Positions 1-63,857 of a stretch of DNA of 64,000 nucleotides are shown in pieces. Position 1 is the first letter of the stretch; the number at the start of each line of letters is the position of its first letter. The translations under genes and the position numbers were made by a program. The notes below the pieces were generated by a model. That model was not told the DNA's origin. It saw nothing but the letters and a program-made list of their open reading frames with translations, and did not search any database. Source of the DNA: Eledone cirrhosa (lineage: Eukaryota); the NCBI GenBank assembly GCA_964016885.1, contig OZ024742.1, positions 224,254,001 through 224,318,000 of the forward strand, written 5' to 3'.

Positions 1-3000
1 CCAGACCACTACACCGCCACCTTAGTTAAAAGACCACCACACACCACCATCTCACCACCAGACCACTACACCGCCACCTTAGTTAATAGACCACCACACA
101 CCACCATCTCACCACCAGACCACTACACCGCCACCTTAGTTAAAAGACCACCACACACCACCATCTCACCACCAACCCACTACACCACCTTACTTAAAAG
201 ACCACCACACACCACCATCTCACCACCAAACCACTACACCACCACCTTAGTTAATAGACCACCACAGACCACCATCTCACCACCAAACCACTACACCACC
301 ACCTTACTTAAAAGACCACCACACACCACCATCTCACCACCAGACCACTACACCGCCACCTTAGTTAAAAGACCACCACACACCACCATCTCACCACCAA
401 ACCACTACACCACCACCCTAGTTAAAAGCCCACCACACACCACCATCTCACCACCAAACCACTACACCACCACCTTAGTTAAAAGACCACCACACACCAC
501 CATCTCACCACCAACCCACTACACCACCTTACTTAAAAGACCACCACACACCACCATCTCACCACCAAACCACTACACCGCCACCTTAGTTAAAAGACCA
601 CCACACACCACCATCTCACCACCAGACCACTACACCGCCACCTTAGTTAAAAGACCACCACACACCAACATCTCACCACCAGACCACTACACCGCCACCT
701 TAGTTAAAAGACCACCACACACCACCATCTCACCACCAAACCACTAAACCGCCACCTTAGTTAAAAGACCACCACACACCACCATCTCACCACCAGACCA
801 CTACACCGCCACCTTAGTTAAAAGACCACCACACACCACCATCTCACCACCAGACCACTACACCGCCACCTTAGTTAAAAGACCACCACACACCAACATC
901 TCACCACCAAACCACTACACCGCCACCTTAGTTAAAAGACCACCACACACCACCATCTCACCACCAAACCACTACACCGCCACCTTAGTTAAAAGACCAC
1001 CACACACCACCATCTCACCACCAGACCACTACACCGCCACCTTAGTTAAAAGACCACCACACACCACCATCTCACCACCAGACCACTACACCGTCACCCT
1101 AGTTAAAAGACCACCACACACCACCATCTCACCACCAGACCACTACACCGCCACCTTAGCTAAAAGACCACCACACACCACCATCTCACCACCAGACCAC
1201 TACACCGCCACCTTAGTTAAAAGACCACCACACACCACCATCTCACCACCAGACCACTACACCGCCACCTTAGTTAAAAGACCACCACACACCACCATCT
1301 CACCACCAGACCACTACACCGCCACCCTAGTTAAAAGACCACCACACACCACCATCTCACCACCAGACCACTACACCGCCACCTTAGTTAATAGACCACC
1401 ACACACCACCATCTCACCACCAGACCACTACACCGCCACCTTAGTTAAAAGACCACCACACACCACCATCTCACCACCAGACCACTACACCGCCACCTTA
1501 GTTAATAGACCACCACACACCACCATCTCACCACCAGACCACTACACCGCCACCTTAGTTAAAAGACCACCACACACCACCATCTCACCACCAACCCACT
1601 ACACCACCTTACTTAAAAGACCACCACACACCACCATCTCACCACCAAACCACTACACCACCACCTTAGTTAATAGACCACCACAGACCACCATCTCACC
1701 ACCAAACCACTACACCACCACCTTACTTAAAAGACCACCACACACCACCATCTCACCACCAGACCACTACACCGCCACCTTAGTTAAAAGACCACCACAC
1801 ACCACCATCTCACCACCAAACCACTACACCACCACCCTAGTTAAAAGCCCACCACACACCACCATCTCACCACCAAACCACTACACCGCCACCTTAGTTA
1901 AAAGACCACCACACACCACCATCTCACCACCAGACCACTACACCGCCACCTTAGTTAAAAGACCACCACACACCACCATCTCACCACCAGACCACTACAC
2001 CGTCACCCTAGTTAAAAGACCACCACACACCACCATCTCACCACCAGACCACTACACCGCCACCTTAGCTAAAAGACCACCACACACCACCATCTCACCA
2101 CCAGACCACTACACCGCCACCTTAGTTAAAAGACCACCACACACCACCATCTCACCACCAGACCACTACACCGCCACCTTAGTTAAAAGACCACCACACA
2201 CCACCATCTCACCACCAGACCACTACACCGCCACCCTAGTTAAAAGACCACCACACACCACCATCTCACCACCAGACCACTACACCGCCACCTTAGTTAA
2301 TAGACCACCACACACCACCATCTCACCACCAGACCACTACACCGCCACCTTAGTTAAAAGACCACCACACACCACCATCTCACCACCAGACCACTACACC
2401 GCCACCTTAGTTAATAGACCACCACACACCACCATCTCACCACCAGACCACTACACCGCCACCTTAGTTAAAAGACCACCACACACCACCATCTCACCAC
2501 CAACCCACTACACCACCTTACTTAAAAGACCACCACACACCACCATCTCACCACCAAACCACTACACCACCACCTTAGTTAATAGACCACCACAGACCAC
2601 CATCTCACCACCAAACCACTACACCACCACCTTACTTAAAAGACCACCACACACCACCATCTCACCACCAGACCACTACACCGCCACCTTAGTTAAAAGA
2701 CCACCACACACCACCATCTCACCACCAAACCACTACACCACCACCCTAGTTAAAAGCCCACCACACACCACCATCTCACCACCAAACCACTACACCACCA
2801 CCTTAGTTAAAAGACCACCACACACCACCATCTCACCACCAACCCACTACACCACCTTACTTAAAAGACCACCACACACCACCATCTCACCACCAAACCA
2901 CTACACCGCCACCTTAGTTAAAAGACCACCACACACCACCATCTCACCACCAGACCACTACACCGCCACCTTAGTTAAAAGACCACCACACACCAACATC

Positions 3001-6000
3001 TCACCACCAGACCACTACACCGCCACCTTAGTTAAAAGACCACCACACACCACCATCTCACCACCAAACCACTAAACCGCCACCTTAGTTAAAAGACCAC
3101 CACACACCACCATCTCACCACCAGACCACTACACCGCCACCTTAGTTAAAAGACCACCACACACCACCATCTCACCACCAGACCACTACACCGCCACCTT
3201 AGTTAAAAGACCACTACACACCACCATCTCACCACCAAACCACTAAACCGCCACCTTAGTTAAAAGACCACCACACACCACCATCTCACCACCAGACCAC
3301 TACACCGCCACCTTAGTTAAAAGACCACCACACACCACCATCTCACCACCAGACCACTACACCGCCACCTTAGTTAAAAGACCACCACACACCAACATCT
3401 CACCACCAAACCACTACACCGCCACCTTAGTTAAAAGACCACCACACACCACCATCTCACCACCAAACCACTACACCGCCACCTTAGTTAAAAGACCACC
3501 ACACACCACCATCTCACCACCAGACCACTACACCGCCACCTTAGTTAAAAGACCACCACACACCACCATCTCACCACCAGACCACTACACCGTCACCCTA
3601 GTTAAAAGACCACCACACACCACCATCTCACCACCAGACCACTACACCGCCACCTTAGCTAAAAGACCACCACACACCACCAGACCACTACACCGCCACC
3701 TTAGTTAAAAGACCACCACACACCACCATCTCACCACCAGACCACTACACCGCCACCCTAGTTAAAAGACCACCACACACCACCATCTCACCACCAGACC
3801 ACTACACCGCCACCTTAGCTAAAAGACCACCACACACCACCATCTCACCACCAGACCACTACACCGCCACCTTAGCTAAAAGACCACCACACACCACCAT
3901 CTCACCACCAAACCACTACACCGCCACCTTAGTTAAAAGACCACCACACACCACCATCTCACCACCAGACCACTACACCGCCACCTTAGTTAAAAGACCA
4001 CCACACACCACCATCTCACCACCAGACCACTACACCGCCACCCTAGTTAAAAGACCACCACACACCAGCATCTCACCACCAAACCACTACACCGCCACCT
4101 TAGTTAAAAGACCACCACACACCACCATCTCACCACCAAACCACTACACCGCCACCTTAGTTAAAAGACCACCACACACCACCATCTCACTACCAAACCA
4201 CTACACCGCCACCTTAGTTAAAAGACCACCACACACCACCATCTCACCACCAGACCACTACACCGCCACCTTAGCTAAAAGACCACCACACACCACCATC
4301 TCACCACCAGACCACTACACCGCCACCTTAGTTAAAAGACCACCAACACACCACCATCTCACCACCAAACCACTACACCGCCACCTTAGTTAAAAGACCA
4401 CCACACACCACCATCTCACCACCAAACCACTACACCGCCACCTTAGTTAAAAGACCACCACACACCACCATCTCACCACCAGACCACTACACCGCCACCT
4501 TAGTTAAAAGACCACCACACACTACCATCTCACCACCAAACCACTACACCGCCACCTTAGTTAAAAGACCACCACACACCACCATCTCACCACCAAACCA
4601 CTACACCGCCACCTTAGTTAAAAGACCACCACACACCAGCATCTCACCACCAAACCACTACACCGCCACCTTAGTTAAAAGACCATCACACACCACCATC
4701 TCACCACCAAACCACTACACCGCCACCTTAGTTAAAAGACCACCACACACCACCATCTCACCACCAGACCACTACACCGCCACCTTAGCTAAAAGACCAC
4801 CACACACCACCATCTCACCACCAGACCACTACACCGCCACCTTAGTTAAAAGACCACCACACACCACCATCTCACCACCAAACCACTACACCGCCACCTT
4901 AGCTAAAAGACCACCACACACACCATCTCACCACCAAACCACTACACCGCCACCTTAGTTAAAAGACCACCACACACCACCCTCTCACCACCAAACCACT
5001 ACACCACCTTAGTTAAAAGACCGCCACACACCACCATCTCACCACCAAACCACTACACCGCCACCTTAGTTAAAAGACCACAACACACCACCATCTCACC
5101 ACCAAACCACTACACCACCACCCTAGTTAAAAGACCACCACACACCACCATCTCACCACCAAATCACTACACCGCCACCTTAGTTAAAAGAACACCACAC
5201 ACCACCATCTCACCACCAAACTACTACACCGCCACCTTAGTTAAAAGACCATCACACACCACCATCTCACCACCTAACCACTACACCACCACCTTAGTTA
5301 AAAGACCATCACACACCACCATCTCACCACCAAACCACTACACCATCACCTTAGTTAAAAGACTACCACACACCACCATCTCACCACCAGACCACTACAC
5401 AGCCATCTTAGCTAAAAGACCACCGCACACCACCATCTCACAACTAAACCACTACACCGCCACCCTAGTTAAAAGACCACCACACACCACCATCTCACCA
5501 CCAAACCACTACACCACCACCTTACTTAAAAGACCACCACACACCACCATCTCACCACCAAACCACTACACCACCACCTTAGTTAAAAGACCACCACACA
5601 CCACCATCTCAACACCAAACCACTACACCACCACCCTAGTTGAAAGACCACCACACACCACCATCTCACCACCAGACCACTACACCACCACCCTAGTTAA
5701 AAGACCACCACACACCACCATCTCACCACCAAATCACTACACCGCCACCTTAGTTAAAAGAACACCACACACCACCATCTCACCACCAAACTACTACACC
5801 GCCACCTTAGTTAAAAGACCATCACACACCACCATCTCACCACCTAACCACTACACCACCACCTTAGTTAAAAGACCATCACACACCACCATCTCACCAC
5901 CAAACCACTACACCATCACCTTAGTTAAAAGACTACCACACACCACCATCTCACCACCAGACCACTACACCGCCATCTTAGCTAAAAGACCACCGCACAC

Positions 6001-6234
6001 CACCATCTCACAACTAAACCACTACACCACCACCTTAGCTAAAAGACCACCACACGCCACCATCTCACCACCAAACCACTACACCACCGCCTTAGTTAAA
6101 AGACCACCACACACCACCATCTCACCACCAGACCACTACACCGCCACCTTAGTTAAAAGACCACCACACACCACCATCTAACCACTAAACCACTACATCA
6201 CGACCTTAGCTAAAAGACCACCACACACCACCAT

Positions 6235-6450
6235 CTCACTACCATACTAGACCACAACCACATCCCCTAACCATCTCACCACAAAACCACTACAACACCA
6301 CCACAACACCACCACAACACACCACCGCACTACTGCTCCATCAATCCTTCACACCAACACCAGCACAACACACCACCGCACCACTGCTCCATCAATCCTG
6401 CACACCAACACCACCACAACACCACCACAACACACCACCACACCACTAGA
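6235..6450. repeat. Junction segment plus short block of the second satellite (CACTGCTCCATCAATCCT(T/G)CACACCAACACC...)
   Basis: Junction ACCACAACCACATCCCCTAACCATCTCACCACAAAACCACTACAAC followed by two units. Confidence 0.9.
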
Positions 6451-8002
6451 CCATCACCTTAGTTAAAAGACCACCACACCCCACCGTCTCACCACCAAAC
6501 CACTACACCACCACCTTAGCTGAAAGACCACCACACACCACAATCTCACCACCAAACCACTACACCACCTTAGTTAAAAGACCGCCACACACCACCATCT
6601 CACCACCAAACCACTACACCGCCACCCTAGTTAAAAGACCACCACACACCACCATCTCACCACCAAACCACTACACCGTCACCTTAGTTAAAAGACCACC
6701 ACACACCACCCTCTCACCACCAAACCACTACACCGCCACCTTATTTAAAAGACCACCACACACCACCATCTCACCACCAAACCACTACACCGCCACCTTA
6801 GTTAAAAGACCACCACACACCACCATCTCACCACCAAACCACTACACCACCACCCTAGTTAAAAGACCACCACACACCACCAAATCACTACACCGCCACC
6901 TTAGTTAAAAGAACACCACACACCACCATCTCACCACCAAACCACTACACCACCACCTTAGTTAAAAGACCACCACGCACCACCATCTCACCACCAGACC
7001 ACTACACTGCCACCGTAGTTAAATGACCACCACACACCACCATCTCACCACCAAACCACTACACCGCCACCTTAGTTAAAAGACCACCACACACCACCAT
7101 CTCACCACCAGACCACAACACCGCCACCTTAGTTAAAAGACCACCACACACCACCATCTCACCACCAAAGCACTACACCACCACCCTAGTTAAAAGACCA
7201 CCATCTCACCACCAAAGCACTACACCACCACCCTAGTTAAAAGACCACCACACACCACCATCTCACCACCAAACCACTACACCGCCACCTTAGTTAAAAG
7301 ACCACCACACACCACCATCTCACCACCAGACCACTACACCGCCACCTTAGTTAAAAGACCACCACACACCACCATCTCACCACCAGACCACAACACCGCC
7401 ACCTTAGTTAAAAGACCACCACACACCACCATCTCACCACCAAAGCACTACACCACCACCCTAGTTAAAAGACCACCACACACCACCATCTCACCACCAG
7501 ACCACTACACCACCACCTTAGTTAAAAGACCACCACACACCACCATCTCACCACCAAACCACGACACCGCCACCCTAGTTAAAAGACCACCACACACCAC
7601 CATCTCACCACCAGATCACTACACCACCACCTTAGTTAAAAGACCACCACACACCACCATCTCACCACCAAACCACTACACCGCCACCTTAGTTATAAGA
7701 CCACCACACACCACCATCTAACCACCAAACCACTACACCACCACCCTAGTTGAAAGACCACCACACACCACCATCTCACCACCAAACCACTACACCACCA
7801 CCCTAGTTAAAAGACCACCACACACCACCATCTCACCACCAAATCACTACACCGCCACCTTAGTTAAAAGAACACCACACACCACCATCTCACCACCAAA
7901 CCACTACACCGCCACCTTAGTTAAAAGACCATCACACACCACCTTCTCACCACCTAACCACTACACCACCACCTTAGTTAAAAGACCATCACACACCACC
8001 AT

Positions 8003-9255
8003 CTCACTACCATACTATACCACAACCACATCCCCTAACCATCTCACCACAAAACCACTACAACGCCACCACAACACCACCACAACACACCACCGCACTA
8101 CTGCTCCATCAATCCTTCACACCAACACCAGCACAACACACCACCGCACCACTGCTCCATCAATCCTGCACACCAACACCACTACAACACCACCACAACA
8201 CACCACCACACCACTGCTCCATCAATCCTTCACACCAACACCACCACAACACCAACACAACACACCACCACACCACTTCTCCATCAATCCTTCACACCAA
8301 CACCACCACAACACACCACCGCACTACTGCTCCATCAATCCTTCACACCAACACCAGCACAACACACCACCGCACCACTGCTCCATCAATCCTGCACACC
8401 AACACCACCACAACACCACCACAACACACCACCACACCACTGCTCCATCAATCCTTCACACCAACACCACCACAACACCAACACAACACACCACCACACC
8501 ACTGCTCCATCAATCCTTCACACCAACACCAGCACAACACACCACCGCACCACTGCTCCATCAATCCTGCACACCAACACCACCACAACACCACCACAAC
8601 ACACCACCACACCACTGCTCCATCAATCCTTCACACCAACACCAGCACAACACACCACCGCACCACTGCTCCATCAATCCTGCACACCAACACCACTACA
8701 ACACCACCACAACACACCACCACACCACTGCTCCATCAATCCTTCACACCAACACCAGCACATAACACCACCGCACCACTGCTCCATCAATCCTGCGCAC
8801 CAACACCACCACAACACCACCACAACACACCACCACACCACTGCTCCATCAATCCTTCACACCACCAACACCAGCACAACACACCACCGCACCACTGCTC
8901 CATCAATCCTGCACACCAACACCACCACAACACCACCACAACACACCACCACAACACCACCACAACACACCACCACACCACTGCTCCATCAATCCTTCAC
9001 ACCAACACCAGCACAACACACCACCGCACCACTGCTCCATCAATCCTGCACACCAACACCACTACAACACCACCACAACACACCACCGCACCACTGCTCC
9101 ATCAATCCTGCACACCAACACCACCACAACACCAACACAACACACCACCACACCACTGCTCCATCAATCCTTCACACCAACACCACCACAACACAAAACC
9201 GCACCAATGCTCCATCAATCCTGCACACCAACACCACCACAACACACCACCACAC
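8003..9255. repeat. Second satellite block, ~51/62-bp units
   Basis: Repeated CCACTGCTCCATCAATCCT(T/G)CACACCAACACC with variable ACCACAAC copies; opens with the same junction as 6235 and 12540. Confidence 0.95.
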
Positions 9256-12200
9256 CACTACACCATCACCTTAGCTAAAAGACCACCACACCCCACCGTC
9301 TCACCACCAAACCACTACACCATCACCTTAGTTAAAAGACCACCACACCCCACCGTCTCACCACCACACCACTACACCACCACCCTAGTTAAAAGACCAC
9401 CACACACCACCAAATCACTACACCGCCACTTTAGTTAAAAGACCACCACACACCACCACAACACACCAGCACACCACTACACCGCCACCTTAGCTAAAAG
9501 ACCACCACACACCACCATCTCACCACCAGACCACTACACCGCCACCTTACTTAAAAGACCACCACACACCGCCATCTCACCACCAAACCACTACACCGCC
9601 ACCCTAGTTAAAAGAACACCACACACCACCATCTCACCACCAAACCACTACACCGCCACCTTAGTTAAAAGACCACCACACACCACCATCTCACCACCAG
9701 ACCACTACACCACCACCTTAGTTAAAAGACCACCACACACCACCATCTCACCACCAGACCACTACACCGCCACCTTAGCTAAAAGACCACCACACACCAC
9801 CATCTCACCACCAGACCACTACACCGCCACCTTAGCTAAAAGACCACCACACACCACCATCTCACCACCAGACCACTACACCGCCACCTTAGCTAAAAGA
9901 CCACCACACACCACCATCTCACCACCAGACCACTACACCGCCACCTTACTTAAAAGACCACCACACACCGCCATCTCACCACCAAACCACTACACCGCCA
10001 CCCTAGTTAAAAGAACACCACACACCACCATCTCACCACCAAACCACTACACCGCCACCCTAGTTAAAAGAACACCACACACCACCATCTCACCACCAAA
10101 CCACTACACCGCCACCTTAGTTAAAAGACCACCACACACCACCATCTCACCACCAGACCACTACACCACCACCTTAGTTAAAAGACCACCACACACCACC
10201 ATCTCACCACCAGACCACTACACCACCACCTTAGTTAAAAGACCACCACACACCACCATCTCACCACCAGACCACAACACCGCCACCTTAGTTAAAAGAC
10301 CACCGCACACCACCATCTCACCACCAAACCACTACACCGCCACCTTAGTTAAAAGACCACCACACACCACCATCTCACCACCAGACCACTACACCGCCAC
10401 CTTAGTTAAAAGACCACCACACACCACCATCTCACCACCAAACCACTACACCGCCACCTTAGTTAAAAGACCACCACACACCACCATCTCACCACCAGAC
10501 CACTACACCGCCACCTTAGTTAAAAGACCACCACACACCACCATCTCACCACCAAACCACTACACCGCCACCTTAGTTAAAAGACCACCACACACCACCA
10601 TCTCACCACCAGACCACTACACCGCCACCTTAGTTAAAAGACCACCACACACCACCATCTCACCACCAGACCACTACACCACCACCCTAGTTAAAAGACC
10701 ACCACACACCACCATCTCACCACCAGACCACTACACCACCACCCTAGTTAAAAGACCACCACACACCACCATCTCACCACCAGACCACTACACCGCCACC
10801 TTAGTTAAAAGACCACCACACACCACCATCTCACCACCAAACCACTACACCGCCACCTTAGTTAAAAGACCACCACACACCACCATCTCACCACCAAACC
10901 ACTACACCGCCACCTTAGTTAAAAGACCACCACACACCACCATCTCACCACCAAACCACTACACCGCCACCTTAGTTAAAAGACCACCACACACCACCAT
11001 CTCACCACCAGACCACTACACCGCCACCTTAGTTAAAAGACCACCACACACCACCATCTCACCACCAAACCACTACACCACCACCTTAGTTAAAAGACCA
11101 CCACACACCACCTTCTCACCACCAGACCACAACACCGCCACCTTAGTTAAAAGACCACCACACACCACCATCTCACCACCAGACCACTACACCGCCACCC
11201 TAGTTAAAAGACCACCACACACCACCATCTCACCACCAAAGCACTACACCACCACCCTAGTTAAAAGACCACCACACACCACCATCTCACCACCAAACCA
11301 CTACACCGCCACCTTAGTTAAAAGACCACCACACACCACCATCTCACCACCAAACCACTACACCACCACCCTAGTTAAAAGACCACCACACACCACCATC
11401 TCACCACCAGACCACTACACCACCACCTTAGTTAAAAGACCACCACACACCACCATGTCACCACCAGACCACTACACCGCCACCTTAGTTATAAGACCAC
11501 CACACACCACCATCTCACCACCAGACCACTACACCACCACCCTAGTTAAAAGACCACCACACACCACCATCTCACCACCAAACCACTACACCGCCACCTT
11601 AGTTATAAGACCACCACACACCACCATCTCACCACCAAACCACTACACCGCCACCTTAGTTATAAGACCACCACACACCACTATCTCACCACCAAACCAC
11701 TACACCGCCACCTTAGTTAAAAGACCACCGCACACCACCATCTCACCACCAGACCACTACACCGCCACCTTAGTTAAAAGACCACCACACACCACCATCT
11801 CACCACCAAACAACTACACCGCCACCTTACTTAAAAGACCACCACACACCGCCATCTCACCACCAAACCACTACACCGCCACCCTAGTTAAAAGACCACC
11901 ACACACCACCATCTCACCACCAGACCACTACACCGCCACCCTAGTTAAAAGACCACCACACACCACCATCTCACCACCAAACCACTACACCACCACCTTA
12001 CTTAAAAGACCACCACACACCACCATCTCACCACCAGACCACTACACCGCCACCCTAGTTAAAAGACCACCACACACCACCATCTCACCACCAAACCACT
12101 ACACCACCACCTTACTTAAAAGACCATCACACACCACCATCTCACCACCAGACCACTACACCGCCACCCTTGTTAAAAGACCACCACACACCACCATCTC

Positions 12201-12540
12201 ACCACCAAACTACTACACCACCGCCTTAGTTAAAAGACCACCACACACCACCATCTCACCACCAGACCACTACACCGCCACCTTAGTTAAAAGACCACCA
12301 CACACCACCATCTAACCACTAAACCACTACATCACCACCTTAGCTAAAAGACCACCACACACCACCATCTCACCACCAGACCACTACACCGCCACCCTTG
12401 TTAAAAGACCACCACACACCACCATCTCACCACCAAACTACTACACCACCGCCTTAGTTAAAAGACCACCACACACCACCATCTAACCACTAAACCACTA
12501 CATCACCACCTTAGCTAAAAGACCACCACACACCACCATC

Positions 12541-13500
12541 TCACTACCATACTATACCACAACCACATCCCCTAACCATCTCACCACAAAACCACTACAA
12601 CACCACCACAACACCACCACAACACACCACCGCACTACTGCTCCATCAATCCTGCACACCAACACCACTACAACACCACCACAACACCACCCCATCAATC
12701 CTTCCCACCAACACCACCACAACACCACCAGAACACACCACCGCACCACTGCTCCATCAATCCTTCACACCAACACCACCGCAACACACCACCACACCAC
12801 TGCTCCATCAATCCTGCACACCAACACCACCACAACACCACCACAACACACCACCACACCACTGCTCCATCTATCCTTCACACCAACACCACCACAACAC
12901 CACCACAACACACCACCACACCACTGCTCCATCAATCCTTCACACCAACACCACCACAACACCACCACAACACACCACCACACCACTGCTCCACCAATCC
13001 TTCACACCAACACCACCACAACACCACCGCAACACACCACCACACCACTGCTCCACCAATCCTTCACACCAACACCACCACAACACCACCACAACACACC
13101 ACCACACCACTGCTCCACCAATCCTTCACACCAACACCACCACAACACCACCACAACACACCACCACACCACTGCTCCACCAATCCTTCACACCAACACC
13201 ACCACAACACCACCACAACACACCACCACACCACCGCTCCATTAATCCTTCACACCAACACCACCACAACACACCACCACACCACTGCTCCACCAATCCT
13301 TCACACCAACACCACCACAACACCACCACAACACACCACCACACCACTGCTCCACCAATCCTTCACACCAACACCACCACAACACCACCACAACACACCA
13401 CCACACCACCGCTCCATTAATCCTTCACACCAACACCACCACAACACCACCACAACACACCACCACACCACTGCTCCATCAATCCTTCACACCAACACCA
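12541..13500. repeat. Third block of the 51/62-bp satellite
   Basis: Same junction and same unit, with a CTCCACCAAT variant spreading in the distal part. Confidence 0.95.
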
Positions 13501-13804
13501 CCACAACACCACCACAACCAGCACCACCAGCACCAACACCACAAGCAACACCACCAGCACCACCACCACCATCACCAGCACCACCACCAACACCACGACG
13601 ACCACCACCACCACCACCACCAGCACCACCAGCACCAACACCACAAGCAACACCACCAGCACCACCACCACCATCACCAGCACCACCACCAACACCACGA
13701 CGACCACCACCACCACCAGCACCACCACCACCATCACCAGCACCACCACCAACACCACGACGACCACCACCACCACCAGCACCACCACTACCATCACCAG
13801 CACC

Positions 13805-13835
<31 letters not shown>

Positions 13836-13865
13836 CCACCACCACCACCACCACCACCACCACCA
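13501..13865. repeat. (CAC/CAG)n-derived tandem units ending in a pure (ACC)n tract; right boundary of the satellite
   Basis: Direct reading; explains the poly-Gly/Val/Trp ORFs. Confidence 0.9.
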
Positions 13866-16185: not shown

Positions 16186-16374
16186 TGGATTGGCAGTATC
16201 GGTAGAGGGTCGGACGCCATGCTTTGCAGCATAGAGTTACGGCCCTTTATGATTTGAGCTCAAATCTCGCCGAGGTTAACTTTGCCTTTCATCCTTACGG
16301 GGTCGATAAAATAAAGTACCAGTAATACACTGGGTAATTGCTGGCCTTGTGCCAAAAGAAGAAACAATTATTAT
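16186..16374 (+). mobile_element. tRNA-derived SINE family 1 (Nin/Deu-like central domain), near full length
   Basis: A-box-like TGGCAGTATCGG, B-box-like GAGCTCAAATC, core GCCTTTCATCCTTACGGGGTCGATAAAATAAAGTACCAG, (ATT)n tail; many copies in the window. Confidence 0.85.
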
Positions 16375-18902: not shown

Positions 18903-19253
18903 ATTATTTCTGAAGACGGCGGGTAGTGAAGACGTATGTATTTTTTTCTTACTATGATATTTTGTAATATGTTTTACATAGATCAATAATTGAATGAACA
19001 TACAGGGAACTACCCCCCCCCCCCACACACACACACCCAGAAACGATCGTAAAATAATGAGTTTTACTATGAATTAACAGTTTTGTGTTTAATTTCATTG
19101 TTTTAATATTTCTATTTTGACTCTGTATCTAATTGAATTATATCGTTGAAAATTTTTGTATTTTAAACTTTGCTTCACGACATCTTCTACATACGGATTG
19201 CATTGAGTTCTTTATACGGTTTAGACCCTACCATTGATTAGTAGATTTATCTG
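18903..19253 (+). mobile_element. Hammerhead family A element, copy 1 (ribozyme fold 18903-19058)
   Basis: ATTATTT-CTGAAGA-CGGCGGGTAGT...ACTACCC...GAAA-CGATCG-TA-AAATAAT; near-identical to the reverse complement of 28226-28560. Confidence 0.85.
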
Positions 19254-19417
19254 TATATATGTATGTTTATATATACACATATTATATAGTTATACTTGGG
19301 AGGGTCATATTGTTGTAATAATATTGCCAGAAATAATAACAGAACACACGCACTGTTTGGTTGGTTTTCGCATCTGTATCTTTTATATATCTCTTATGTA
19401 TTATATATATATATATA

Positions 19418-19534
19418 ATAGTTCAAATCCCCCCGAGGTTAACTTTGCCTTTCATCCTTACGGGTTCAATAAAATAAAGTACCAGTAATACACTGGGATA
19501 ATTGCTGGCCTTGTGCCAGAAGTAGAAACAATTA
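19418..19534 (+). mobile_element. SINE family 1, 5'-truncated
   Basis: Matches ~16258-16374. Confidence 0.8.
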
Positions 19535-19542
19535 TATATATA

Positions 19543-19640
19543 CAGGGTCTCCCAAAAATTCTATACACACTTTAACAGCATTCTAATAAATATTGCCTGT
19601 ACAGGTAATCAAAGTATGTATACATTTCTTGGGGTCATTG
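19543..19640 (-). mobile_element. ~98-bp Tc1/mariner-type MITE (opposite orientation, diverged)
   Basis: TIR CAGGGTCTCCCAAAAA, TA flanks, internal sequence is the reverse complement of 54159-54256. Confidence 0.8.
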
Positions 19641-24035: not shown

Positions 24036-24148
24036 ACATGTCTTGCGGTTACAGGTTTATTTTTTTATCTTTTGACCTCTTTCGATCATTAGACGGCGGT
24101 CATAATGGGGCATCGCCTTGAAAGGATTTAACCGATCATATCGACCCA

Positions 24149-24613
24149 AGCACAAACTGGTGAGCTGAACAATCTCCACTGTTTCAACGTCCTCAGTTTG
24201 CTCATGGACTTCTCTGAATTTGAATGCAATAGCATCTGCATACCTCGTCCTGGCTTCCTTTTCCACCAATGCTTCCCACTTTATCCGGTAGGTCGCTCTG
24301 GATCTGCCAGTTTTGTGGGCTTCTTTCGTTTTAGGTAGACTCAAGTTGCAGATAACTAGGTGATCAGTTGACAGCTCATCCCCTCTCTTAACACGAACAT
24401 CCAGCACAGAATCGAAGAGATGAGATAAAATAACAAAATCAATTATTGGTCTTTATCCTTGATTTCCCTTATACCATGTATATTTATGGATGTCTCTGTG
24501 CTGGAAGAAGGTGTTCATAATAGAGAGTTCATTTCTAGAACAGATGTTAATAAGGTCTCTCCATTTGTATTTAGCTCGGGGTCGCCATTCCCTCCAATCA
24601 CATCTTTCCTTGT
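24149..24613 (-). mobile_element. RTE-clade LINE, inverted 5' segment: C-terminal part of the APE endonuclease plus linker (pseudogene)
   Basis: Minus strand DVIGGNGDPELNTNGETLL..NTFFQH..IDFV..LDVRVKRGDELSTDHLVIC, with frameshifts. Confidence 0.9.
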
Positions 24614-28161: not shown

Positions 28162-28230
<69 letters not shown>

Positions 28231-28422
28231 TAAATCTACCAATCAATGGTAGGGTCTAAACCGTATAAAGAACTCAATGTAATCCGTATGTAGAAGATGT
28301 CGTGAAGCAAAGTTTAAAATACAAAAATTTTATCAACGATATAATTCAATTAGATACAGAGTTAAAATAGAAATATTAAAACAATGAAATTAAACACAAA
28401 ACTGTTAATTCATAGTAAAACA

Positions 28423-28560
28423 CATTATTTTACGATCGTTTCTGGGGGGTAGTTCCCTGCATGTTCATTCAATTATTGATCTATGTAAAACATATTACAA
28501 AATATCATAGTGAGAAAAAGATACATACGTCTTCACTACCCGCCGTCTTCAGAAATAATG
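28423..28560 (-). ncRNA. Type I hammerhead ribozyme fold, family A, with 81-nt loop 2
   Basis: Stem I CATTATTT/AAATAATG (8 bp); CTGAAGA; stem II CGGCGGGTAGT/ACTACCCCCCA (9 of 11 paired); GAAA; palindromic stem III ACGATCGT; GUA site. Confidence 0.8.
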
Positions 28561-28563
28561 AAT

Positions 28564-28705
28564 TTATTTCTGAAGACGTAGTGAAGACGTATGTAGTGAA
28601 GACGTATGTATTTTTTTCTTACTATATTTTGTAATATGTTTTACATAGATCAATAATTGAATGAACATGCAGGGAACTACCCCCCAGAAACGATCGTAAA
28701 ATAAT
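28564..28705 (+). ncRNA. Family A hammerhead, stem II 5' strand damaged
   Basis: Core and stems I/III intact; GCGGG lost and a GTAGTGAAGACGTA duplication present. Confidence 0.6.
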
Positions 28706-28751
28706 GAGTTTTACTATGAATTAACAGTTTTGTGTTTAATTTCATTGTTTT

Positions 28752-28834
<83 letters not shown>

Positions 28835-28879: not shown

Positions 28880-28980
28880 TAGGTTGTCCTAAAAAAAATG
28901 TATACACACTTTGATTATCCGTACAGGCAATATTTATTAGAATGCTGTTGATGTGTGCATACACTTTTTGGGACACCCTG
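28880..28980 (+). mobile_element. Tc1/mariner-type MITE
   Basis: Same family as 54159-54256; TA flanks. Confidence 0.85.
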
Positions 28981-29007
28981 TATATATATATATATATATA
29001 CACACAC

Positions 29008-30190: not shown

Positions 30191-30362
30191 ATTGGCAGTA
30201 TCGGTAGAGAGTCGGACACCATGCTTTGAAGCATGGGGTTACGTCCCTTTATGATCTGAGTTCAAATCCCGCCGAGGTTAACTTTGCCTTTCATCCTTAC
30301 GGCGTCGATAAAATAAGTACACTGGGTAATTGCTGGCCTTGTGCCAAAAGTAGAAACAATTA
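30191..30362 (+). mobile_element. SINE family 1, back-to-back with an older minus-strand SINE head (~30100-30190)
   Basis: Matches 16186-16374; B box GTTCAAATCC. Confidence 0.85.
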
Positions 30363-31094: not shown

Positions 31095-31188
31095 ATAATT
31101 GTTTCTACTTTTTGGCACAAGGCCAGCAATTATCCCAGTGCATTACTGGTACTTTATTTTATCGACCCCGTAAGGATGAAAGGCGGGA
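31095..31188 (-). mobile_element. SINE family 1 3' part, abutting the truncated mariner
   Basis: Reverse complement of the SINE 3' end. Confidence 0.8.
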
Positions 31189-56574: not shown

Positions 56575-56733
56575 AATACTATGTTTTTAACAGAGCAGTT
56601 GAAATTTTGAACATAACTCACGGAGCCCCAGTACTTCTTTAGTAAACCGCCAGTTCTATCAGTGGTCCACAGATCCCAGGTATCACCTTTGTGTACTCCC
56701 CAATACTACCTTTGTTTACCCCATTTGTGAACC

Positions 56734-59700
56734 CTAGTACTGTGTACACCCAGTACCATGGACCACACAGTACTGTGGACCACACAGTACTGTGGACCAC
56801 ACAGTACTGCGTACACCCAGGACTGTGGACCACCTAGTACTGTGGACCACACAGTACTGTGTACACCCAGGACTGTGTACACCCAGGACTGTGGACCACC
56901 CAGTACTGTGGACCACACAGTACTGTATACACCCAGGACTGTGGACCACCCAGTACTGTGGATCACACAGTACTGTGTACACCCAGGACTGTGGACCACC
57001 CAGTACTGAGGACCACACAGTACTGTGGACCACACAGTACTGTGTACACCCAGGACTGTGGACCACCCAGGACTGTGGACCAGACAGTACTGTGTACACC
57101 CAGGACTGTGGACCACCCAGGACTGTGGACCACACAGTACTGTGGACAACACAGTACTGTGTACACCCAGGACTGTGTACCACCCAGGACTGTGGACCAC
57201 ACAGTACTGTGTACACCCAGGACTGTGGACCACCCAGTACTGTGGACCATACAGTACTGTGTACATCCAGTACTGTGGACCACACAGTAGTGTGTGGTCC
57301 ACAGTACTGGGTGGTCCACAGTCCTGGGTGTACACAGTACTGTGGACCACACAGTACTGTGGACCACACAGTACTGTGTACACCCAGGAGTGTGGACCAC
57401 ACAGTACTGTGGACCACACAGTAATGTGTACACCCAGGACTGTGGACCACCCAGGACTGTGGACCACACAGTACTGTGTACACCCAGGACTGTGGACCAC
57501 CCAGGACTGTGGACCACACAGTACTGTGGACCACACAGTACTGTGGACCACACAGTACTGTGTACATCGAGGACTGTGTACACCCAGGACTGTGGACCAC
57601 ACAGTACTGTGTACACCCAGGACTGTGGACCCCAGGACTGTGGACCACCCAGTACTGTGGACCACACAGTACTGTGTGGTCCACAGTACTGGGTGGTCCA
57701 CAGTCCTTGGTGTACACAGTACTGTGTGGTCCACAGTACTGTGTGGTCCACAGTCCTGGGTGGTCCACAGTCCTGGGTGTACACAGTACTGTGTGGTCCA
57801 CAGTACTGGGTGGTCCACAGTCTTGGGTGGTCCACAGTCCTGGGTGTACACAGTACTGTGTGGTCCACAGTACTGTGTGGTCCACAGTCCTGGGTGTACA
57901 CAGTAATGTGTGGTCCACAGTCCTGGGTGGTCCACAGTCCTGGGTGTATACAGTACTGTGTGGTCCAAAGTACTGGGTGGTCCACAGTCCTGGGTGTACA
58001 CAGTACTGTGTGGTCCACAGTACTGTGTGGTCCACAGTACTGTGTACACCCAGGATGTGGACCACCCAGTACTGTGGACCACACAGTACTGGGTGGTCCA
58101 CAGTAGTGGATGTACACAGTACTGTGTGGTCCACAGTACTGGGTGGTCCACAGTCCTGGGTGTATACAGTACTGTGTGGTCCACAGTACTGTGTGGTCCA
58201 CAGTACTGTGTGGTCCACAATACTGGGTGGTCCACAGTACTGTGTGGTCCACAGTACTGTGTGGTCCACAGTCCTGGGTGGTCCACAGTACTGGGTGGTC
58301 CACAGTACGGTGTGGTCCACAGTACTGGGTGGTTCACATTCCTGGGTGTACACAGTCCTGGGTGTACACACTACTGTGTGGTCCACAGTACTGGGTGGTC
58401 CACAGTCCTGGGTGTACACAGTACTGGGTGGTCCACAGTCCTGGGTATACACAGTACTGTGTGGTCCACAGTACTGTGTACACCCAGGACTGTGGACCAC
58501 ACAGTACTGTGTACACCCAGGACTGTGGACCACGCAGGACTGTGGACAACACAGTACTGTGTACACCCAGGACTGTGGACCACCCAGTACTGTGGACCAC
58601 ACAGTGCTGTGTACACCCAGGACTGTGGACCACCCAGTACTGTGGACCAGACAGAACTGTGTACACCCAGTACTGTGTATACCCAGTACTGTGGAGAACA
58701 CAGTACTGTGTACACCCAGGACTGTGGACCACCCAGGACTGTGGACCACCCAGTACTGTGGACCACACATTACTGAGTACACCCAGGACTGTGGACCACA
58801 CAGTAGTGTGTACACCCAGGACTATGGACCACACAGTCCTGTGGACCACACAGGACTGTGGACCACCCATTACTGTGGACCACACAGTACTGTGGACCGC
58901 ACAGTACTGTGTACACCCAGGACTGTGGACCACCCAGTACTGTGGACCACACAGTACTGTGGACCACACAGTACTGTGTACACCCAGGACTGTGGACCAC
59001 CCAGGACTGTGGACCACACAGTACTGTGGACCACACAGTACTGTGTACACCCAGGACTGTGGACCACCCAGGACTGTGGACCACACAGTACTGTGGACCA
59101 CACAGTACTGTGGACCACACAGTACTGTGTACACCCAGGACTGTGGACCACCCTGGACTGTGGACCACCCAGTACTGTGGACCACACAGTACTGTGTACA
59201 CCCAGTACTGTGGACCACCCAGTACTGTGGACCACACAGTACTGTGTACACCCAGTACTGTGGACCATCCAGTACTGTGAACCACACAGTACTGTGTAGA
59301 CCCAGGACTGTCGACCACCCAGTACTGTGGACCACACAGTACTGTATACACCCAGGACTGTGGACCACACAGTACTGTGGACCACACAGTACTGTGTACA
59401 CCCAGGACTGTGTACACCCAGGACTGTGTGGTCCACAGTACTGTGGACCACACAGTACTGTGTACATCCAGTACTGTGGACCACACAGTACTGTGTGGTC
59501 CACAGTACTGTTGTGTCCACAGTACTGGGTGTACACAGTACTGTGTGGTCCACAGTACTTGGTGGTCCACAGTACTGTGTACACCTAGGACTGTGGACCT
59601 CCCAGTACTGTGGACCTCACTATACTGTGTACACCCAGGACTGTGGACCACCCAGTACTGTGGACCACACAGTACTGTGGACCACACAGTACTGTGTACA

Positions 59701-62700
59701 CCCAGGACTGTGGACCACCCAGGACTGTGGACCACACAGTACTGTGGACCACACAGTACTGTGGACCACACAGTACTGTGTACACCCAGGACTGTGGACC
59801 ACCCTGGACTGTGGACCACCCAGTACTGTGGACCACACAGTCCTGTGTACACCCAGTACTGTGGACCACCCAGTACTGTGGACCTCACTGTACTGTGTAC
59901 ACCCAGGACTGTGGACCACCCTGGACTGTGGACCACCCAGTACTGTGGACCACACAGTCCTGTGTACACCCAGTACTGTGGACCACCCAGTACTGTGGAC
60001 CTCACTGTACTGTGTACACCCAGGACTGTGGACCACCCAGTACTGTGGACCACACAGTACTGTGGACCACACAGTACTGTGTACACCCAGGACTGTGGAC
60101 CACCCAGGACTGTGGACCACACAGTACTGTGGACCACACAGTACTGTGTACACCCAGGACTGTGGACCACCCAGGACTGTGGACCACACAGTACTGTGTA
60201 CACCCAGGACTGTGGACCACCCAGTACTGTGGACCACACAGTCCTGTGTACACACAGTACTGTGGACCACCCAGTACTGTGGACCTCACTGTACTGTGTA
60301 CACCCAGGACTGTGGACCACCCAGTACTGTGGACCACACAGTACTGTGTACACCCAGGACTGTGTACACCCAGGACTGTGGACCACCCAGTACTGTGGCC
60401 CTCACTGTACTGTGTACACCCAGGACTGTGGACCACCCAGTACTGTGGACCACACAGTACTGTGGACCACACAGTACTGTGTACACCCAGGACTGTGGAC
60501 CACCCAGTAATGTGGACCTCACTGTACTGTGTACACCCAGGACTGTGGACCACCCAGTACTGTGGACCACACAGTACTGTGGACCACACAGTACTGTATA
60601 CACCCAGGACTGTGGACCACCCAGGACTGTGGACCACACAGTACTGTGGACCACACAGTACTGTGGACCACACAGTACTGTGGACCACACAGTAGTGTGT
60701 ACACCCAGGAATGTGGACCACCCAGGACTCTGGACCACACAGTACTGTGTACACTCAGGACTGTGGACCACCCAGTACTGTGGACCACACAGTATTGTGT
60801 ACACCCAGTACTGTGGACCACACAGTAGTGTGTACACCCAGGACTGTGGGCCACCCAGTACTGTGGACCACACAGTATTGTGTACACCCAGTACTGTGTA
60901 TACCCAGTACTGTGGACCACACAGTACTGTGTACACCCAGGACTGTGGACCACCCAGGACTGTGGACCACCCAGTACTGTGGACCACACATTACTGAGTA
61001 CACCCAGGACTGTGGACCACACAGTAGTGTGTACACCCAGGACTATGGACCACACAGTCCTGTAGACCACACAGGACTGTGGACCACCCATTACTGTGGA
61101 CCACACAGTACTGTGGACCGCACAGTACTGTGTACACCCAGGACTGTGGACCACCCAGTACTGTGGACCACACAGTACTGTGGACCACACAGTACTGTGT
61201 ACACCCAGGACTGTGGACCACCCAGTACTGTGGACCACACAGTACTGTGTACACCCAGGACTGTGGACCACCCAGTACTGTGGACCACACAGTACTGTAT
61301 ACACCCAGGACAGTGGACCACCCAGTACTGTGGACCACACAGTACTGTGTACACCCAGGACTGTGGACCACCCAGTACTGTGGACCACCCAGTACTGTGG
61401 ACCACAGAGTACTGTGTACACCCAGTACTGTGGACCACCCAGTACTGTGGACCACACAGTACTGTGTACACCCAGTACTGTGGACCATCCAGTACTGTGA
61501 ACCACACAGTACTGTATGCACCCAGGACAGTGGACCACCCAGTACTGTGGACCACACAGTACTGTGTAGACCCAGGACTGTGGACCACCCAGTACTGTGG
61601 ACCACACAGTACTGTATACCACCAGGAATGTGGACCACCCAGTACTGTGGACCACACAGTACTGTGTACACCCAGGACTGTGTACACCCAGGACTGTGTG
61701 GTCCACAGTACTGTGGACCACACAGTACTGTGTACATCCAGTACTGTGGACCACACAGTACTGTGTGGTCCACAGTACTGTTGTGTCCACAGTACTGGGT
61801 GTACACAGTACTGTGTGGTCCACAGTACTTGGTGGTCCACAGTACTGTGTACACCTAGGACTGTGGACCGCCCAGTACTGTGGACCTCACTGTACTGTGT
61901 ACACCCAGGACTGTGGACCACCCAGTACTGTGGACCACACAGTACTGTGGACCACACAGTACTGTGTACACCCAGGACTGTGGACCACCCAGGACTGTGG
62001 ACCACACAGTACTGTGGACCACACAGTACTGTGGACCACACAGTACTGTGTACACCCAGGACTGTGGACCACCCTGGACTGTGGACCACCCAGTACTGTG
62101 GACCACACAGTCCTGTGTACACCCAGTACTGTGGACCACCCACTACTGTGGACCTCACTGTACTGTGTACACCCAGGACTGTGGACCACCCAGTACTGTG
62201 GACCACACAGTACTGTGTACACCCAGGACTGTGTACACCCAGGACTGTGGACCACCCAGTACTGTGGACCTCACTGTACTGTGTACACCCAGGACTGTGG
62301 ACCACCCAGTACTGTGGACCACACAGTACTGTGGACCACACAGTACTGTGTACACCCAGGACTGTGGACCACCCAGGACTGTGGACCACACAGTACTGTG
62401 GACCACACAGTACTGTGGACCACACAGTACTGTGTACACCCAGGACTGTGGACCACCCAGGACTGTGGACCACACAGTACTGTGTACACCCAGGACTGTG
62501 GACCACCCAGTACTGTGGACCACACAGTCCTGTGTACACACAGTACTGTGGACCACCCAGTACTGTGGACCTCACTGTACTGTGTACACCCAGGACTGTG
62601 GACCACCCAGTACTGTGGACCACACAGTACTGTGTACACCCAGGACTGTGTACACCCAGGACTGTGGACCACCCAGTACTGTGGACCTCACTGTACTGTG

Positions 62701-63493
62701 TACACCCAGGACTGTGGACCACCCAGTACTGTGGACCACACAGTACTGTGGACCACACAGTACTGTGTACACCCAGGACTGTGGACCACCCAGTACTGTG
62801 GACCTCACTGTACTGTGTACACCCAGGACTGTGGACCACCCAGTACTGTGGACCACACAGTACTGTGGACCACACAGTACTGTATACACCCAGGACTGTG
62901 GACCACCCAGGACTGTGGACCACACAGTACTGTGGACCACACAGTACTGTGGACCACACAGTAGTGTGTACACCCAGGACTGTGGACCACCCAGGACTCT
63001 GGACCACACAGTACTGTGTACACTCAGGACTGTGGACCACCCAGTACTGTGGACCACACAGTATTGTGTACACCCAGTACTGTGGACCACACAGTAGTGT
63101 GTACACCCAGGATTGTGGACCACCCAGTACTGTGGACCACACAGTATTGTGTACACCCAGTACTGTGTATACCCAGTACTGTGGACCACACAGTACTGTG
63201 TACACCCAGGACTGTGGACCACCCAGGACTGTGGACCACACAGTACTGTGTACACCCAGGACTGTGGACCACCCAGTACTGTGGACCACCCAGTACTGTG
63301 GACCACACAGTACTGTGTACACCCAGGACTGTGGACCACCCAGTACTGTGGACCACACAGTACTGTGTACACCCAGGACTGTGGACCACCCAGTACTGTG
63401 GACCACACAGTACTGTGTACACCCAGGACTGTGGACCACCCAGTACTATATACTCCCAGTACTGCTTCCCTCCCCCCTTTCCCTGCCAGTACT
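56734..63493. repeat. 6.7-kb palindromic minisatellite of 17-bp (TGTGGACCAC(A/C)CAG(T/G)AC) and 16-bp (TGTGTACACCCAGGAC) units with internal inversions
   Basis: Direct reading; the consensus units contain no stop codon on either strand. Confidence 0.97.
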
Positions 63494-63857
63494 GCCTACG
63501 TAGACCCGAAGGGGTTTCCAGATCCCAGGTTAGGAACCCTTGACCTAAACCCATCTGATCAACAAGTTTTTCCTCTTCTCTCCACGTCATACATTTTAGG
63601 ACTTGTTCTGCACTAAATAAACACTTCTTCCTCCAGCCTTTCCTCTCCTCAACTCTTCCCCCTCCTCTGAAAATCTCCCCGCCATGTTTTTCCTATTTTC
63701 CTACACACATTCCCCTACAGATGTTCAAATTAGACGCCAACCTCATCAATCCATTATAAACTGGAATACATTTTGATAATTGATTTTTAATATATTCTTC
63801 CAATATTGTTTTTTATTGATTTATTAATATTTTGTCATGCGTATGTGTGTATGTGTA

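Follow-up and report, generated by a model that had tools for sequence, protein, structure and literature searches.

Judged by compensatory changes in stems I and II, the hammerhead motif on the minus strand at positions 28560-28423 (a 138-mer) of the 64-kb stretch of Eledone cirrhosa DNA analysed here (hereafter the window) is a type I hammerhead ribozyme motif, and the conservation described below indicates that its fold is under selection. It is almost certainly the pLTR ribozyme of a Hydra-clade Penelope-like element (PLE), the clade being assigned by motif. The ribozyme type, the palindromic stem III, the host clade, and pLTR introns are already known. We did not find in the literature, however, a layout in which a transcription start, stem I, and a splice donor within stem II follow one another, nor any PLE hammerhead with a stem II of ~100 nt or with a donor inside stem II; an earlier description is possible, as Repbase-type annotations lay outside the scope of that search.

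The motif shows type I topology, with CUGANGA, GAAA, and NUH in order round three stems and the open ends in stem I. In what follows, +1 denotes the A that opens stem I (28559 in the window copy). The features of the site and of the related window copies are as follows.

28553..28560, minus strand: 5' strand of stem I, CATTATTT, assigned by pairing; contains the +1 A at 28559
28546..28552, minus strand: hammerhead core CUGAAGA (CTGAAGA); UUGAAAA in family f2
28535..28545, minus strand: 5' strand of stem II, with C·A at the first position and C·Y at position 4, both in all four families
28527..28532, minus strand: AGACGT, DPE-like, at +28..+33 in family f1; looser in f2 and lost in f3 and f4
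28523..28528, minus strand: predicted 5' splice donor GTATGT at +32, from GTA(T/A)GT conservation
28454..28534, minus strand: the 81-nt "loop 2", predicted to be an extended stem II with a donor/anti-donor helix and an inner UGUAA/UUACA hairpin
28459..28464, minus strand: anti-donor ACATGC, reading ACATAC in most f1 copies; the predicted pairing partner of the donor
28443..28453, minus strand: 3' strand of stem II, from pairing tables
28431..28442, minus strand: GAA, palindromic ACGAUCGU (stem III), and A17, from sequence and pairing; palindrome duplex -10.0 kcal/mol
28423..28430, minus strand: 3' strand of stem I, AAATAATG, from pairing tables
28225..28561, minus strand: 5'-truncated pLTR copy of family f1, reaching from -2/+1 to the 3' end and including a ~137-nt tail
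28564..28759, plus strand: inverted partner copy, starting at +2, tail-less, ending at (TC)n
18903..19254, plus strand: third copy in the window; its first base is exactly +1, and the 3' strand of its stem II carries a C/CA insertion

The elements named in a preliminary description of this DNA (an 8-bp stem I, CUGAAGA, an 11-position stem II enclosing 81 nt, and a GUA site) were all located on the minus strand. Stem II of the window copy has mismatches at position 1 (C·A) and position 4 (C·C), the string ACGATCGT sits between GAA and A17 (28431), and the predicted cut falls between 28431 and 28430. A relaxed descriptor matched this site and no other in the 64-kb window, and the same descriptor gave a mean of 0.0 matches in 10 block-shuffles of 14-56 kb. 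Rfam, by contrast, gave no hammerhead anywhere in the window at gathering score, nor any at E<=10 within 28200-28800, in agreement with the earlier expectation that so long a loop 2 could escape standard profiles. The isolated 138-mer folded only modestly better than shuffled sequences did (z -1.97), with the core mispaired in its minimum-energy fold. The minimal palindromic stem III, earlier read as a sign of the dimer type, is indeed of the kind reported to work as dimers and is a familiar trait of PLE hammerheads (PMC4209133, PMC6765202). The label "Family A" used in the preliminary description, on the other hand, has no definition that we could find in the literature, although Lunse et al. 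(RNA Biol) might have one.

Three copies of GAAACGATCGT are present in the window (+19040, -28432, and +28687), as had been stated, and the genome as a whole holds far more. Only the copy at 28423-28560 has an intact stem II, that of the inverted partner being damaged in its 5' strand by an internal duplication. The adjacent copies lie on opposite strands, and therefore no dimer is possible between them within one RNA. The pLTR copy that carries the motif adjoins (TA)n at 28164-28224 and is 92-98% identical to its other best-matching genomic copies. It is an ORF-less relic with neither an acceptor nor an intact same-strand partner.

Other repeats occupy much of the window. A 57-bp C-rich tandem array with extreme strand skew covers 1-12549 and 12598-13865 and is broken by 62-bp and 226-bp arrays, and a complex GC-rich satellite with short units in both orientations and thousands of inverted-repeat pairs extends over about 56700-63500. 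Short elements with similar inverted ends (CAGGG..TC.CAAAA type) stand in TA runs at 19543, 20571, 28880-28990, and 54159, and we take them to resemble miniature DNA transposons. A 131-aa frame at 24057-24452 on the minus strand looks by eye like a LINE endonuclease fragment and has no match in Pfam.

Four sister families of the motif were recovered, with f1 being the family of the window copy and f2 being 66% identical to it. Core-anchored pair tables were used because MAFFT put stem II out of register between families, and copies entering the tables were required to have TAGAT in the insert. In the family majorities, the strands of stem II pair in 36 of 40 cells with seven double-sided changes, whereas control strands slid by 1-3 positions pair in 9-23 cells with zero or one such change. 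Compensatory changes occur at 7 of the 10 stem II positions, and stem II pairing, the feature on which the preliminary description had staked its assignment, is thus retained together with covariation in the genome-wide consensus. Stem I is paired in all 28 cells, with two double-sided changes. The first stem II position, where hammerheads usually have the pair G10.1-C11.1 directly after the core, is C·A in every family and is followed by G-C, A-U, or G-U, and the C·Y of the fourth position is likewise invariant. The core reads UUGAAAA in 28 of 33 copies of the f2 bin, with U3-A8 in place of C3-G8, a variant already described for hammerheads (PMC4209133); the remaining five copies of this bin are misbinned f1. 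N17 is A or U in all families, and the palindrome ACGAUCGU is kept in 44/48, 30/33, 54/55, and 41/41 copies of the four bins.

The host element is widespread in this 3.0-Gb, microsatellite-rich genome: the exact 15-nt core AGAAACGATCGTAAA has 9,313 genomic matches versus 6 for a reversed control, and a 346-nt query returned 1,684 candidates, 40 of them scored. The copies terminate in (TA)n, and many have a head-to-head inverted partner that is ~137 nt shorter at the 3' end; a pLTR-plus-tail pattern is known for PLEs (PMC8557442). In longer copies, the upstream ORF ends in a GIY-YIG-type domain with CxCX5C, CxxC, and CxH, and locus L061 holds a full-length pLTR-ORF-pLTR element with RWR and DKT, its pLTRs 4.0 kb apart. 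By inspection, the protein carries the motifs RWR, DKT, CNCRIKENC, CGLC, and CNH, and its N-terminus visibly parallels Hydra-clade proteins; Pfam returned no significant family for it. The general PLE traits are present as well, namely a single ORF with RT and GIY-YIG-type endonuclease, pLTRs, an inverted 5'-truncated partner, and an optional tail. The GIY-YIG-type C-terminus, linker and zinc motifs, RW(R/K), DKT, and (TA)n are all shared with Hydra-clade PLEs, whose marks include RW(R/K), DKT, a CxCX5C linker, CxxC and CxH around E/N, and (TA)n targets in the part of the description available to us (Craig et al., 2021; PMC8557442).

Long open frames are numerous in family f4, such as that of 813 aa from ATG in L231 (G000:C1:183743000-183751200); they stand in 6.67-kb head-to-tail tandems, and the family was apparently recently active. 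Its cut site reads GUU, and an Asn/Thr-rich linker joins its RT to the endonuclease. A second hammerhead on the same strand is present in such tandem elements (at 4.0 kb in L061 and 6.67 kb in L231), whereas the neighbour of the window copy is inverted. The tail is ~137 nt long (28225-28365, minus strand, versus the partner's end at 28759, plus strand), compared with the 30-40 bp given for PLE tails, those of Hydra included, in the available text of PMC8557442. It carries a 23-nt motif common to the families, with 5,469 exact genomic matches, which is a candidate protein-binding or priming signal. An origin as a non-LTR retrozyme was rejected: such retrozymes are described as short non-coding tandem hammerhead units with copies starting at the cut (bioRxiv 10.64898/2026.07.22.740005), whereas the copies here are dispersed or lie in ORF-bearing 4-6.7-kb units and have 5' ends at +1.

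The two halves of the core are unusually far apart throughout these families. Among 150 distinct copies (from fetched loci found by f1, f2, core, tail, and ORF queries, without the TAGAT filter, a sample in which short-loop relatives may be under-represented), the separation is 97-116 nt in 142. The ~100 nt are predicted to fold as an extended stem II and not as an open loop; the 81-nt length earlier assigned to loop 2 therefore stands, but in the models most of it is paired. The GUAUGU/ACAUGC pairing noted inside it likewise appears as a helix, and we identify its strands as a splice-donor motif and its complement. GTATGT or GTAAGT is found at +32 to +34 in 134 of the 150 copies (again without the TAGAT filter), and the 13 nt that precede it differ among families while its position is fixed. 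The genome is TA/TG-rich and GTATGT is frequent in it, the GTAAGT of f2 alone standing outside a repeat-like context. Predicted pairing probabilities of the donor are 0.97-1.0 in f1, f3, and f4 and 0.1-0.95 in f2, and in 7/7 representatives the minimum-energy fold is 1.7-5.0 kcal/mol more stable than the hammerhead conformation. The long arm also contains the conserved blocks TGATA and TACATAGATC.

The 5' ends of genomic copies point to a transcription start at the edge of the ribozyme. In the first 100 of the 5,469 tail-motif matches, 35 copies run further upstream and 65 end within the pLTR. Of these 65, 21 have their 5' end at -1..+2 (0.8 expected), 15 of them exactly at +1, and there is no excess at the predicted cut site (2/65, p=0.2). 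A G is found at -1 in 14 of 57 +1 junctions and at -2 in 3 of 57 (Fisher p=0.007), the 57 being only partly independent in that they comprise inverted partners and two rows of native duplicates; at 72 native sites, G at -1 never occurs. Reverse transcription of an RNA cap is known from other retroelements, and the extra G at -1 fits such copying. The f1 start context, TCA+1TT, is Inr-like, and the DPE spacing rule lies behind the label DPE-like for AGACGT. This AGACGT also resembles the RGACGTGY element of the internal promoter of Penelope (PMC2377424). Overall, transcription very probably starts at +1, the first base of stem I. The peak at +1 could also have come from an endonuclease preference for ATT (PMC11167929) or from self-priming on an antisense template (PMC3846280). 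The inspected f2 junctions speak for a position effect, however, in that they use the ATT at +1 and pass over several ATTs just upstream.

Repeated insertions of a short interspersed repeat with an (ATT)n tail are present at the ATTATT of the pLTR +1 (7/136 sites). The repeat was seen in the window at 16343, 19507-19533, and 30335-30361 on the plus strand and at 31097, 35627, 38393, and 44391 on the minus strand, and further at L009, L023, L077, L085-L087, and L091. Apparent starts at +1 beside this repeat were rejected as insertions into the pLTR, L009 and L023 retaining the native sequence upstream, and the seven insertion sites were excluded from the junction count. The repeat is likely a case of one mobile element hitting the likely start site of another.

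Upstream of the ORF, a conserved GT donor motif and a YAG acceptor motif are both present. The sequence TAG|TTGAGC precedes the ORF in 9/9 loci of f1-f4, which were selected for having the ORF-proximal region, with diverged sequence upstream of it and conserved sequence downstream. In the five leaders measured, 34-35 nt separate the conserved TAG from the ORF ATG that follows it, and this ATG is 300-380 nt past the hammerhead core. In all five complete leaders, joining the donor to the TAG would remove 351-436 nt and would reduce the upstream ATGs from 8-12 to 0-1; f3 and f4 would retain an upstream ORF of 1-3 codons, and the f3 acceptor has a weak pyrimidine tract. Exact-pattern searches found no spliced genomic copies of f3 or f4 (diverged ones could escape), and the corresponding f1 search gave one match, in unrelated sequence; further exact-pattern searches for processed copies yielded none, along with 291 unspliced f1 matches. 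PLEs are known to keep introns in genomic copies (PMC8557442), and 5'-UTR pLTR introns are known in Penelope (PMC2377424) and Chlamys-3 (PMC8557442). Four read sets over the window, and two of the four over an f4 leader, contained no skip joint, and because their depth was like that of genomic DNA, they carry no information on expression or splicing. We consider it probable, from the conservation of the motif, that the donor is used as a 5' splice site.

The observations can be joined in one chain, with the start at stem I, exon 1 as the 5' half of the ribozyme, and the cut site in intron 1, to which we give a slightly better than even chance. Pol II would start at +1 from the internal pLTR promoter, and in tandem elements, the donor at +32/+33 would be spliced to the TAG 34-35 nt before the ORF ATG. 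The intron thus removed would take with it the 8-12 upstream ATGs and the 3' half of the ribozyme (GAAA, palindrome, and cut site), and the spliced RNA would be an mRNA whose leader is free of ribozyme. Where stem II folds, it would hide the donor, and the RNA would remain unspliced and serve as the template that is copied into the genome. A masked donor and an unspliced template would explain both the intron retention and the many short copies that start at +1. Both 3'-end (priming) positions of the 5' pLTR would fall in the predicted intron, so that short +1 copies would come from unspliced or 3'-pLTR RNA. Cleavage at GUA/GUU would be slow and would need a second hammerhead, joined through the palindrome, or the element's protein; the partner would be that of the other pLTR, 4.0 or 6.7 kb downstream. 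In the anole element, unprocessed RNA is described as the main substrate and the ribozyme as protein-assisted (PMC11167929). Against the chain weigh the lack of a spliced genomic copy in these searches, the frequency of GTATGT in this genome, the weak pyrimidine tract of the f3 acceptor, the loss of the DPE-like match in f3 and f4, the C·A first pair, the lower energy of folds other than the hammerhead, the missing excess of 5' ends at the cut site, and the almost full predicted pairing of the donor in f1, f3, and f4, which may mean that the donor is rarely used. A further step, which we put forward tentatively and hold to be rather less likely than its opposite, is that the hammerhead, running from the cap site across the exon 1/intron 1 border with stem II masking the donor, acts as a splice-or-cleave RNA switch: folding would give an unspliced, cleavable template, and U1 binding would give a ribozyme-free mRNA.

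Alternatively, no splicing may occur. The expanded stem II would then carry promoter or protein-binding blocks (TGATA, TGTAA/TTACA, and TACATAGATC), the GT motif would be incidental or part of the promoter, and the ribozyme would be an ordinary slow one, dimeric or protein-assisted. We regard this explanation as unlikely but not remote. It would account for the absence of spliced copies in the exact-pattern searches, for the paired donor, and for the block ACATAGATC, which is mostly unpaired in the structure models and yet present in 134 of the 150 copies; moreover, there are other systems in which self-cleavage can drive translation without a cap (PMC13725137). It fits less well with a donor position that stays fixed between diverged flanks, with the full GTAAGT of f2, or with an acceptor-like TAG conserved before the ORF, and it leaves 8-12 ATGs in the leader.

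We considered it quite unlikely that the intron lies wholly within loop 2, such that splicing turns a bulky precursor into a compact active hammerhead. The window copy has GT (28528) and CAG (28457) bounding 72 nt, whose removal would leave a 9-nt loop, within the 3-10 nt of the Hydra hammerheads published in File S2 of PMC8557442, and TACATAG is common to all four families 45-60 nt after the donor. The CAG, however, is missing from f2, f3, f4, and an f1 subfamily, and the 72-nt intron was demoted on this ground, its AG not being conserved; with the shared TAG as acceptor, the intron would be very short and the loop left behind would still measure about 30 nt. Exact-pattern searches, moreover, found no processed copy versus 291 unspliced ones, and another such search also found none. 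A motif that has lost cleavage and survives as a structural scaffold (a promoter, export, or packaging signal) is equally hard to credit: the missing 5'-end footprint at the cut site, the C·A first pair, and the core mispairing in predicted minimum-energy folds would suit it, but every catalytic position is kept, N17 is always A or U, catalysis would demand just such a double change as that from C3-G8 to U3-A8, and the listed canonical PLE hammerhead PLE-X1_cBra has C·A at the same position (PMC8557442 File S2).

The hammerheads of Hydra pLTRs are similar to the motif in being type I, in lying near the 3' end, and in having a short palindromic stem III, as far as they are described in the available text of PMC8557442, and many Hydra rows of its File S2 also have an extra N·N between core and stem II. 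Their loop 2, by contrast, measures 3-10 nt in 26/26 rows of File S2, as opposed to 97-116 nt between the cores here, and the available text notes no promoter or splice site inside the ribozyme, whereas both are predicted here. The minimal dimeric hammerheads of metazoan PLEs and retrozymes (PMC4209133) share the unstable palindromic stem III, the type I topology, and the U3-A8 variant, but stem II here is much longer, and its host is an autonomous element and not a short tandem retrozyme unit.

The closest parallels to the proposed leader come from other elements. The pLTR of Drosophila virilis Penelope, which belongs to a different clade, likewise has an internal Inr/DPE-type promoter, a short first exon, a 5'-UTR intron kept in genomic copies, and a hammerhead that touches the intron boundary, according to the available portions of two reports (PMC2377424; PMC4209133). 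There, however, the 75-nt intron extends up to the 5' end of helix I and both RNA forms keep the ribozyme, whereas here the predicted start is at helix I and the donor in stem II, and splicing would delete half of the ribozyme together with the cut site. Chlamys-3_cRei also starts in the pLTR and has a 398-bp 5'-UTR intron across the pLTR/body boundary, similar in size to the 351-436 nt predicted here; its intron was shown by Iso-Seq, while ours is predicted, and it represents an N-terminal endonuclease clade mostly without a canonical hammerhead (PMC8557442, as available). In anole Poseidon PAc, as in our element, the pLTR hammerhead overlaps an expression signal and there are two 3' ends (tail). 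No reads were reported to end at its cut site in vivo, as no excess of genomic-copy 5' ends was found here (PMC11167929, in the part available). In PAc, the start codon is at stem II and protein-assisted cleavage was shown; here, the hammerhead overlaps the predicted start and donor instead, and the ATG lies well beyond the core.

The finding bears on how such ribozymes are detected, in that descriptor and profile searches that assume a short loop 2 miss abundant hammerheads, with 9,313 cores in this genome and none seen by Rfam in the window. In this element, the predicted start, the donor, the putative donor-masking helix, and the ribozyme are contained within about 140 nt, in four covarying families and thousands of copies. 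If splicing is absent, ribozyme and clade are both of known kinds, and the long arm is what sets this variant apart. The function of PLE hammerheads has been called unclear and the reason for intron retention unknown (PMC8557442, in the text available). If the switch is true, one structure would explain both the retention of introns in PLEs and the purpose of their hammerheads.
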